Positions 6,990-9,900 of a stretch of DNA of 34,239 bases are shown here, in pieces. How positions within the stretch are numbered: the stretch's first letter is position 1; each line of letters opens with the position of its first letter. The DNA comes from a virus (Duplodnaviria > Heunggongvirae > Uroviricota > Caudoviricetes), in IMG/VR virus record IMGVR_UViG_2663762996_000010, positions 1-34,239 of that record; one strand, written 5' to 3'. Made by a program: the position numbers.

Positions 6990-9900
6990 ACTGGACCGCC
7001 ACCGGGGACTCGAACCTCGCACACTCAACTTAAAGGGTTGACGCTCTTTCCTGATGAACTGGTGACGGTTGGTGGCCCTTGCTGGATTTGAACCAGCGAC
7101 CTGGCGATTATGAGTCGCTCGCTCTCACCACTGAGCTAAAGGGCCGGGCGCAGGATAATAACGTTACGAAATCAATGTTGCAAGCATTCAAAAATCACCT
7201 GGTTAAAAATCACCCTTAGCTCCTCCACCAGCGCATTCACCATGTCTATCCGAGATAAGTGGCACAAAAAAACCCGCTTGTGGGCGGGTTTTGTTTGCTT
7301 TTGCCATCACGTACAAAATCGGCAAAATATCAGATTTGCATGAAATATATGCCTTTCAATCTACTTTTGCAACACTTTGCTTTGAAAATGCCGCCTTTTG
7401 TTTTGAACGTGTTCTCATTACAAACAATAAAGCCTCACTATCCAGTCGTTGAAAAATGTGTTTCATTGCAACCCAGTGACGAGTAAATGTTTTGGACCAG
7501 TTTTTAGTTGCCACTCCCGCCAGTAATGCCAGCTCCTGGTATTCATAACCTTCCCCACCAAAAAGTTCTGCTTTTACTGCCTGCGCCGCCAGCCAGATTA
7601 ATTTTTTCAGGCGTTCCTGCGTTTTCCCTGCAATTTTTCTGGTACCGGATTGAGTATTAAATTCATTCCACGCCCACTGTGTTATCGCGATCTGATATTC
7701 CCAACAAATACTCTCGCCGTAACACCACAACAACCAGGCTTTATGATGCTCTTCAAGAGACAGCAAAGCCCGCCGCCATGATGATGTCGAAAACTCAACC
7801 GGGCTGACCAGGGCAATTGATGAGCCATTCGCCAGTGATTGTTTTCCCGGGATTGGTGGATTATCCCGCGTTATCATTTTTCCAGTCACTTCATCGCGGT
7901 ACCGGATTTTTTTTCGCCTGTAACGCCCTGTATCGAACATGGCATTCTCCTGCCAGGCTTCAAGCTGACCTTTTGTTGCCCCACTCAAATCAGCGGTGGC
8001 GATAATGAGCTGCTCACGCACAAACTGTAAATACTGGTTATTCATGCGCACTCCAGTTCTGTGATTTTTATCCCCAGCCGCCCACCAGGAACGAGCTGAC
8101 CGCGCACAATATTGATTTCATCAAACTGCTCGTCGTCTATGAGTAGTCCGGCATGCGTCAGCGCATCCAGTGGTGCTTTCAGGATATTGTCCAGGTCACG
8201 ACGGCGCTTATCCGGTGGCTCTGCAATAATCTTTATCGCCAGCCTTCCGGACAGGTTTAATTTCAACCGCTGCTGGCGAACAATTAGCGCCACATCATGG
8301 CGATAACGCTTTCCGGCCTCCGAGATGAAATACGTATTGCCATGACGTCGCCAGTAGGTATTCACCGTCGGCGGGTAAGGCAAAACAAATTCTATGCGTT
8401 CAGTCATTCATGCTTTCCACTTCAGGACACCCGAATTTCTCGCGTGCATTAAAAAACGAATCAGCAACAACAGCTGGCTGCCGTGTTTTTCTTCAAAATC
8501 TTTTACCCCGGCGTGCAGTTCGTTATGACATTTACGGCACAGCGGAATAACAAACAAATCATCAGCCTTTGTTCCCATCCCTCCCAGTCCATGACCAATG
8601 ATGTGATGCGGATCATCTGCCTGATTACCGCACGTCATGCATTTCTGCGTTTTTACCCAACGCGTGTATACAGGCATCTCTTCCCGTTGTGGTTTCTGGC
8701 GCTGGAGATACTGAGCCGGTGACTCCGGATCAACGGCAATGCTGACCACCGTCTTTTCCTGTGGCGGGTTTTGCTGGTGGGCATGAGGCAACGGCGCAAG
8801 ATTTTTTGTGCGCTGCTTCAGTATGCTGGTGGCGGTCTGCTCTCCCGGTACGATGTCGCTTTCGCGGTACAAGGAGCGGATTTTTTCCGCACGTAACCCC
8901 AGAGAACGACGTAATACTGCCTCCGGAAGCGCGTCCGCCACCTGATTGCAGACCGCCCACCAGGATAATTCAGCCAGCGACAATTCCCGCTCCTGCGTGC
9001 CATTCATTGCATGGCGTATGACGTCAATCATCCATGCTGACAGGTTTTGATGAGCAAGTTGCCCGAGTGATTCGGATGTCTGGTCACGCAACTGGTTGTC
9101 GCAGTGCCAGCACAACACCATCGCGCCGGTACCGTAACGATGTATGACGATTTCACTGTGATGATAGTCACCATGAGGCCACTGGCAGGATTTGACATGA
9201 CGCAACAGCCAGTCAGACAGTGCCCCAGCGCCGCCAGCAGCACGAATCACCCGCTCATCGCTGAAAAATGGCAGTAATGATTTATCCTCCGCCAGCGGCT
9301 GGCGAACGGCAGGGACGACTCCGGACGGCAGACCGCGCATGCTTTTCGGTTCAGGCTCCACCAGCACTCGAGGGTTATGAAATACTTGCATGGATTCACG
9401 GCCCGGCCTAAGGACCACCAGCCCGAGTTCCGGTACCAGAACAGGTCGAAGTAATATCCGCACGTTACCTCCAGATCCGTTGCTGGTATGTGCGGGATGG
9501 GCGCGGTGGGCGTTCGGAATAAGGGAGCCTGACATAGATTATCCAGTGACGATAATCGAGGCTGAGGGCTTTCTTAATCTCGTATCCGCGTCTGCGATAG
9601 TTATGAATTAGCCATTCGGCCTGTTCTTCAGTACATGGGTCATGCTGGAACCAGTCAGATTTGAAAGTGCGGGAACGCCGCCCGTGCCTGCTGGCAAAGA
9701 CGGCAGAATCATCAGAATTGTGTAATTTGGTATCGTGCGCCATCGGTTGTCTCTGCTGGCGCAGCAGGTGCCAGTTGTTCAGGCTGGCGTGCGAATTGTA
9801 AACCAGAATGCCAGGAAAAAACAAAACCCGCCGAAGCGGGTATGCTAAAACAAACTGAAAGTAATATACCGGACTTGTAAAGGAACGATAGAATAATTAT

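Follow-up and report, generated by a model that had tools for sequence, protein, structure and literature searches.

What is the 77-nucleotide (nt) element embedded in a tightly packed transfer RNA (tRNA) array of a lambda-like Escherichia coli prophage, and would it still serve as a tRNA? The question is raised by a stretch of 34,239 nt of viral DNA (Caudoviricetes; positions 1 to 34,239 of IMG/VR record IMGVR_UViG_2663762996_000010), referred to here as the window. An original prediction, made from the sequence alone, had singled out positions 6992–7068, between a tRNA with a CAT anticodon and tRNA-Thr, as a non-canonical tRNA-like gene, and had offered a specialised tRNA (Lys-like or of altered identity), a pseudo-tRNA and a tRNA-derived regulatory RNA as possible explanations. 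As judged from sequence comparison, the element appears to be a real but worn-down tRNA gene of lambda-like E. coli prophages. We lean, with reservations, towards the view that the window copy, a tRNA-Lys gene of argN descent, is transcribed along with its neighbours and processed, yet is marginal or in decay.

The location and the parts of the element described in the original prediction were confirmed. ARAGORN calls tRNA-Lys(ttt) on the minus strand at identical coordinates, exactly 6992–7068, with a score of 100.5 (the three array neighbours score 117–121). A parse of the sequence recovers the acceptor, D and anticodon arms, the T arm with GGTTCGAGTCC, the CCA end, C in place of U at positions 8 and 33, and the loop CCUUUAA. 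Read from 7068 to 6992, the gene forms a four-arm cloverleaf with an encoded CCA (CCGTCAC-CA-GTTC-ATCAGGAAA-GAGC-G-TCAAC-CCTTTAA-GTTGA-GTGTG-CGAGG-TTCGAGT-CCCCG-GTGGCGG-T-CCA). In the RNA, the acceptor stem CCGUCAC/GUGGCGG comprises seven base pairs (bp) and the D arm GUUC-AUCAGGAAA-GAGC comprises four. The anticodon arm UCAAC-CCUUUAA-GUUGA and the T arm CGAGG-UUCGAGU-CCCCG each have a 5-bp stem and a 7-nt loop, the variable loop is GUGUG, and the 3′ end is formed by the discriminator U and CCA. The earlier account did not include an A51·C63 mismatch, U73, and two G·U pairs (U4·G69 and U11·G24). The features of the element are as follows.

6992–7068, minus strand: the element, a tRNA gene of the argN family, anticodon UUU (Lys), C8/U4/U11 allele (ARAGORN, Rfam RF00005, homology)
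7030–7036, minus strand: anticodon loop CCUUUAA, with C32 at 7036, C33 at 7035, UUU at 7034–7032, and A37 and A38 at 7031–7030
7061, minus strand: C8 instead of the near-universal U8 (sequence; family comparison)
7005–7017, minus strand: T arm with the A51 (7017)·C63 (7005) mismatch, which is common to argN of Shiga toxin (Stx) phages
6992–6995, minus strand: discriminator U73 (6995) and CCA (6994–6992) (sequence)

Of the conserved tertiary positions, A14, G18G19, TTC and A58 are kept, and U8 and U33 are changed. Searched alone, the element gives a full-length match to the Rfam model RF00005 (31.3 bits, E value 1.7e-5, gathering threshold 29), and its CAT, Thr and Gly neighbours score 72.5, 73 and 64.9 bits, respectively. 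This match is absent from Rfam scans of the whole window and of 400 nt around the element, owing to speed filters: the default filters of cmscan, and also the 'evalue' filters on 400 nt, drop the above-threshold 80-nt stretch 6990–7069. Low-scoring tRNAs can thus escape Rfam searches through speed filters. Minimum-free-energy folding was discarded as a test of the element, as the best structures of the CAT and Thr neighbours are not cloverleaves either. Hundreds of prophages hold an annotated tRNA gene in this position that is 80–96% identical to the element, and its likeness to a tRNA lies well beyond chance. As grounds for giving up a non-canonical gene, the original prediction had named no hit or a low-scoring pseudogene from tRNA predictors, together with related prophages revealing the segment as a decayed canonical tRNA, and much of this was found. 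The predictor hits are marginal (the ARAGORN score is the lowest in the family, the Rfam score is close to threshold, and 12 of 12 sampled identical copies are left unannotated by PGAP), and better-formed versions of the gene occur in related prophages (an allele with U8, the Lys allele with a canonical U33, and argN itself).

The origin of the element was traced by BLAST searches of collections of phage and E. coli genomes, in which the first two genes of the array align with ileZ–argN of Stx phages. The element is 80.5% identical to argN, with which it shares its acceptor family, D loop, T arm (including A51·C63), U73 and CCA, and 76.6–85.7% identical over the whole gene to annotated tRNA-Arg members, the T arm and acceptor stem being nearly invariant. 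Its position is also that of argN: it follows ileZ directly, with Q on one side and the lysis or stx genes on the other. In an alignment of 13 family members from E. coli prophages, 97.6% of the cells in the cloverleaf stems are paired, and five pairs show two-sided changes, versus none when the partners are slid by 1–3 columns; the 51–63 pair occurs within the family as A-U, G-C, G·U and A·C. The paired cells and the two-sided changes, with covariation in support of all four stems, show this to be a genuine, structurally selected tRNA family. Four of its forms trace a series of anticodons.

argN: loop CUUCGAA (anticodon UCG), 30–40 pair G-C, A51·C63
Allele of strain 'clone D i2': loop CUUCUAA (UCU), 30–40 pair G·U, A51-U63
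Allele of strain 95-3322: loop CUUUUAU (UUU, with U33), 30–40 pair A-U, perfect T stem, U4-A69
Major Lys form: loop CCUUUAA (UUU, with C33), 30–40 pair A-U, A51·C63

The Lys forms are alloacceptor offshoots of the argN family, reached through single-base anticodon steps (UCG to UCU to UUU) with compensated stems. The element carries UUU and neither of the Arg anticodons (UCG or UCU); homology and position place it within the argN family, and it is predicted not to be an orthologue of argN in function. The altered identity suggested in the original prediction therefore holds in an evolutionary sense, as a change of anticodon within the argN family. Specialised design fits less well, the non-canonical features of the window copy mostly marking a weakly constrained allele instead. 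The family offers a clean case of natural tRNA recruitment, in which the anticodon steps are accompanied by a shift from G-C through G·U to A-U within the prophage pool of one species. The literature searched, including that on prophage tRNA-Lys, contained no account of the Lys/C33 lineage or of the anticodon series, and a search on ileZ, argN and argO returned nothing usable on argN function.

The C33 Lys lineage was found in 798 of 5426 complete E. coli genomes. In a scan of GTDB with one genome per species, the Lys-type anticodon arm was confined to E. coli and Shigella flexneri, so there is no deep comparative signal. The commonest allele (Nord1 type) has U8, C4 and C11, is labelled tRNA-Lys by PGAP, and scores 44.4 bits with Rfam and 112.6 with ARAGORN. 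The window allele, identical copies of which (100%) occur in about 170 genomes, departs from it by C4U, U8C and C11U. U8 is kept in the argN, UCU, U33-Lys and Nord1 alleles, and all outgroups have both U8 and C11, which makes C8 and U11 derived states; U4 is also found in the U33 Lys allele. Among 86 IMG/VR loci that carry the four-tRNA array, position 8 is T in 70 and C in 16, and an intermediate allele (L009) combines C4, C8 and U11. C8 is private to one sub-lineage, and C33 is fixed throughout the major Lys lineage. The canonical U33 Lys allele is rare, being present in 20 of 5426 genomes at ≥95% identity and in 1 of 120 IMG/VR loci.

The quality of the tRNA declines by degrees across the family. 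ARAGORN scores of seven alleles fall from 122.4 (U33-Lys) through 118.9 (UCU), 117.4 (argN), 112.6 (C33/U8), 109.6 (Evi) and 103.2 (D-stem deletion) to 100.5 (window); the Rfam scores and the cloverleaf energy also show a graded drop, the latter being −25.5 kcal/mol for the U8 allele versus −20.4 kcal/mol for the window allele. Independent lesions, namely the C8 allele and an allele in which one D-stem nucleotide is lost, occur at high frequency in the C33 lineage, and one variant (L091) has lost 7 nt. Within the C8 lineage, one sub-allele (L142, five loci) has A51-U63 restored and U73 changed to G, and another (L146, three loci) has acquired a second T-stem mismatch through G52A, so that repair and further decay coexist there. 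The window allele is best described as the most eroded common form of the C33 Lys lineage.

Annotation of the lineage is uneven. In a sample of 60 evenly spaced records of the C33 lineage, 12 carry the window allele and two carry close variants (97–99% identical), all 14 being left unannotated by PGAP; none of the 16 copies of the D-stem-deletion allele is annotated, and 27 records label the gene tRNA-Lys. Prophage tRNA counts in E. coli are consequently inconsistent, with one and the same gene labelled tRNA-Lys in roughly half of the genomes that carry it and without a label in the others.

If the window copy is a marginal or decaying tRNA-Lys gene, the array would be transcribed as a unit, and RNase P and 3′ trimming would release the element as a 77-nt RNA. 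All the features that such maturation requires are present: the setting includes a promoter-like site, an encoded CCA and spacers of 1–3 nt to the three strong tRNAs beside it. Charging, if it takes place, would likely be by lysyl-tRNA synthetase (LysRS), given the UUU anticodon. The UUU anticodon is the dominant determinant for LysRS, and A73 is the Lys discriminator, which is also present in host tRNA-Lys; the element has U34, U35 and U36 (7034–7032), but U73 (6995) where A73 is expected. It would probably be a poor decoder, because U73 replaces A73, the T stem contains an A·C mismatch, two pairs are G·U, and C8 abolishes the U8–A14 tertiary pair; its contribution to translation would hence be small. 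Modification of the anticodon loop may be impaired as well: C33 is reported to be an anti-determinant for synthesis of threonylcarbamoyladenosine at position 37 (t6A37) by the bacterial TsaD-TsaB-TsaE enzymes (PMC9654439), and the element combines the t6A37 determinants U36A37A38 with this anti-determinant, so that it is predicted not to be a substrate. The gene could nevertheless persist, embedded as it is among useful members of the array, with lesions that would be nearly neutral.

Population data were compared for the four genes of the array in the 86 IMG/VR loci. Nucleotide diversity is 0.021 for the Lys-like gene (12 variable substitution sites), 0.005 for the ileZ-type CAT tRNA (nine sites), 0.010 for tRNA-Thr (14 sites) and 0.013 for tRNA-Gly (11 sites). 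The value of the Lys-like gene is on a par with that of the flanking non-coding DNA (0.02–0.04), and its excess stems from the window haplotype. The proposition that the Lys-like gene is more polymorphic than its neighbours was accordingly retained for nucleotide diversity only, as neither the number of variable sites nor the kind of stem change is clearly different. In prophage clusters, the ileZ-type gene is 100% identical in eight of nine, regardless of the tRNA that comes next, the ninth differing by a compensated 31–39 pair (97–100% overall). Identity in the second slot is anywhere between 76.6 and 100%, and the stem changes there are compensatory (clusters including L001–L003, L124 and L127–L130); the two adjacent genes differ strikingly in evolutionary rate.

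Several observations weigh against a decaying gene. The expression and charging of any allele are predictions. The number of variable sites in the Lys-like gene is similar to those in tRNA-Thr and tRNA-Gly, and in the 86 loci its stem changes are mostly C>U substitutions that give G·U pairs, those in Thr and Gly including more broken pairs. A second locus sample was drawn with a search pattern that fixes the loop, except for admitting the U33 allele; in the two samples together, changes that keep and changes that break pairing are roughly even. The population data show weak constraint across the whole array, with no uniquely dead gene, and the Lys-like gene is not clearly less constrained than its neighbours. 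C33 and UUU never vary in the sample gathered with a T-arm pattern, in which loop variation is limited to position 32, and the loop is neither reverted nor lost there; ARAGORN made 514 calls over the fetched loci as a whole, and each non-U33 tRNA among them is the C33 Lys gene. The restoration of A51-U63 in L142 looks like continuing structural selection. A natural C33 tRNA is near-normal in yeast (PMC13492127), and the T stem of the host tRNA thrU also holds an A·C pair, so neither C33 nor the mismatch is disqualifying alone. The C33 Lys gene is, moreover, carried by inducible, viable phages.

The array occupies the late-operon tRNA slot of lambdoid phages, which in Stx phages is filled by ileZ-argN-argO ahead of stx. 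The minus-strand order is RusA, Q, a pR′-like promoter, a tR′-like terminator, a sigma-70-like site, the four tRNAs, a hairpin, holin, a DUF1327 protein and lysozyme, and the features located in the window are listed here.

8407–8042, minus strand: RusA
7356–8051, minus strand: late antiterminator Q, upstream of the array (Pfam PF06323, E value 2.4e-91)
7372–7344, minus strand: pR′-like promoter (promoter scan)
7269–7292, minus strand: tR′-like intrinsic terminator between Q/pR′ and the array, minus-strand reading AAACCCGCCCACAAGCGGGTTTTTTTG (hairpin reported on the plus strand)
7155–7183, minus strand: sigma-70-like promoter TTGCAA-17-TATTAT directly before the array (consensus match only)
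7070–7145, minus strand: ileZ-type tRNA with a CAT anticodon, first gene of the array (ARAGORN and Rfam; PGAP label tRNA-Ile)
6914–6989, minus strand: tRNA-Thr(UGU), near-exact copy of host thrU (ARAGORN and Rfam)
6836–6910, minus strand: tRNA-Gly(UCC), near-exact copy of host glyT (ARAGORN and Rfam)
6628–6613, minus strand: terminator-like hairpin downstream of the array (terminator scan)
6328–6543, minus strand: P21-type holin S, downstream of the array (Pfam PF04971, E value 1.4e-35)

The four tRNA genes lie 1–3 nt apart, each with an encoded CCA; the CAT tRNA is 1 nt upstream and tRNA-Thr 2 nt downstream of the element. The Thr and Gly genes (6836–6989) match the thrU-tyrU-glyT locus of the host at 99.4% identity; only 3 nt separate them, and tyrU, which stands between thrU and glyT in the host operon, is missing. 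Host tRNAs have therefore been captured into the phage array.

Other parts of the window yielded observations of their own. On the plus strand, between 16600 and 22500, Rfam detects three copies of DicF (16694, 20356 and 22240), two of C4 antisense RNA (18878 and 20743) and two of isrK (18777 and 20642), and direct repeats of at least 300 nt with 100% identity lie at 17577/19589/21454, 16617/20279/22163 and 18623/20488. This DicF/C4/isrK region of the prophage is tandemly duplicated and complex, and could reflect either genuine amplification or an assembly artefact. A sok antitoxin RNA is matched at full length at 10726–10900 on the minus strand (Rfam, 111.7 bits), which points to a hok/sok-type toxin–antitoxin locus within the prophage. 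Finally, tRNA-Ser(CGA) (26746–26835, minus strand) and tRNA-Asn(GUU) (27827–27902, plus strand) are separated by 992 nt, the serU–asnT spacing of E. coli K-12. This suggests that one end of the prophage falls at serU or close to it and that the remainder of the window is chromosomal.

Of the alternatives, the one that survives best holds that the element is a working tRNA-Lys(UUU) on a non-Lys scaffold, which would replace host tRNA-Lys destroyed late in the lytic phase by PARIS AriB, PrrC or RloC, as the tRNA-Lys of phage T5 does, and in which C33 might further block cutting beside position 33. We regard this as rather unlikely, but it has several points in its favour. The Lys codons AAA and AAG are not rare in E. 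coli, and their commonness leaves the recruitment of a Lys anticodon unexplained by codon supplementation. The fast, compensated evolution of the second slot beside a steady ileZ is a pattern like that of an arms race. AriB cleaves the host's tRNA-Lys at the junction of positions 40 and 41 within the motif U36AAUC|A41, and the change U39A alone abolishes cleavage (PMC12409363, PMC11464382); the element has U36AAGUU41, which differs at positions 39, 40 and 41 and does not contain this motif. The tRNA-Lys of T5, which has UAAACC, resists AriB and suppresses PARIS (PMC11464382, PMC12409363). PrrC cuts 3′ of U33 (PMC2610378), a position at which the element has C, and phages restricted by PrrC170 are rescued by a phage tRNA-Lys (PMC11555353). 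The neighbouring tRNA-Thr(UGU) is itself of a targeted species, being attacked by P2 Old and, as a second target, by AriB (PMC12445682, PMC12409363).

Other points count against it. The absence of the AriB motif is the default for a Lys anticodon on an Arg scaffold, and is not evidence of selection for resistance. The adjacent Thr copy retains the host UAAUCA motif and would be cleaved, and about half of the copies of the Lys-like gene carry extra lesions (C8 or the D-stem deletion). The tRNA-Lys of T5 has U33 and A73, so C33 is unnecessary for evasion of PARIS, and U73 in the element is not the Lys discriminator. tRNA-Lys(UUU) depends on t6A37 more than most tRNAs. C33 should prevent this modification (PMC9654439). 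Separately, C33 was considered as a hallmark of nuclease-resistant phage tRNA-Lys and was ruled out, given U33 in the T5 gene.

A broader form of this proposal, that temperate lambda-like phages recruited a spare Arg scaffold as a Lys tRNA unrecognisable to nucleases, as it lacks the AriB motif and has C for U where PrrC and RloC cut, with the evolution of the second slot as the footprint of an arms race, is in our view improbable. If the Lys form proved active and nuclease-resistant, counter-defence by tRNAs would extend from large virulent phages such as T5 to ordinary temperate phages, present in some 15% of the genomes of E. coli; an inactive Lys form would be a decaying accessory gene.

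It is a good deal less plausible that the element yields a tRNA-shaped RNA acting outside decoding, whether as a decoy that binds a tRNA-Lys-specific nuclease or modification enzyme and is not consumed, as a processing spacer of the array, or in tuning −1 frameshifting on AAG in G/GT. The anticodon arm is nearly constant in the T-arm-pattern sample (varying at position 32 and by one G42A), and the frequent lesions (C8, the D-stem deletion, U4 and U11) fall in the D arm and on the 5′ side of the acceptor, as might be expected of such an RNA, although variants of the T arm occur as well. For the frameshift version, the tail-chaperone gene G of the related complete phage PhiR47_1, which encodes Lys(UUU)-type and Gly(UCC) tRNAs of its own, ends with CCG GAA AAG TCC TGA, with AAG in the A site of the likely G/GT slip site. 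The G/T overlap (L153, 27340–27370) reads ...CCGGAAAAGTCCTGA, with T in the −1 frame and Lys AAG at that site, and the array encodes tRNA-Gly(UCC) as well. However, the PhiR47_1 site has no canonical X XXY YYZ heptamer, and frameshifting in lambda G/GT proceeds without a phage tRNA. A non-decoding role is wholly inferential, with no precedent found in the literature searched, and no evidence emerged for the tRNA-derived regulator entertained in the original prediction.

Least credible by far is a non-Lys reading, through charging by arginyl-tRNA synthetase (ArgRS) via the retained A20 or suppression of UAA (ochre) codons through a shifted loop CC-U-UUA-A: the scaffold comes from tRNA-Arg, A20 and U73 included, and UUA does occur in the loop if the usual anticodon register is moved by one position towards the 3′ side, but the loop is a normal 7-mer whose standard register is UUU, position 35 is U where ArgRS requires C35, and stop-codon recoding is not known in lambdoid phages. 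Both versions were ruled out on loop geometry and U35.

The marginal or decaying tRNA-Lys gene that we favour can be set beside five known genes, one of which is the common allele seen in strain Nord1 (U0533_RS16055) and phage PhiR47_1. This is the same gene of the array, with the same C33 and UUU loop, and is 96.1% identical to the window copy, differing at 3 of 77 nt. The U33 tRNA-Lys(UUU) of E. coli 95-3322 shares with the window allele the family, the slot, the UUU anticodon, A30-U40 and U4. It differs in its loop (CUUUUAU), its perfect T stem (with G51-C63), its U4-A69 pair and its ARAGORN score of 122.4.

The argN gene (in Stx2a_F349 and O157:H7 prophages, for example) is likewise the second gene after an identical ileZ, lies downstream of Q and is of equal length. 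It has UCG rather than UUU, U33 rather than C33, G-C rather than A-U at 30–40, and U·G rather than U-A at 27–43; C8 and the two extra G·U pairs are present only in the window allele. It is followed by argO and stx, whereas the element is followed by the thrU and glyT copies.

The tRNA-Lys(UUU) of T5 resembles the element in being phage-encoded, in its UUU anticodon, and in having a 3′ strand of the anticodon stem unlike the host UAAUCA. Unlike the element, which is known from sequence alone, it is of the canonical Lys type, has U33 and A73, comes from a virulent phage, and its function has been demonstrated. The S. cerevisiae tRNA-Leu(GAG) (PMC13492127) provides a parallel for C33 in a gene retained by a population; it differs in being eukaryotic, in having another anticodon and a function that has been shown, and in neither decoding ANN codons nor needing t6A37.

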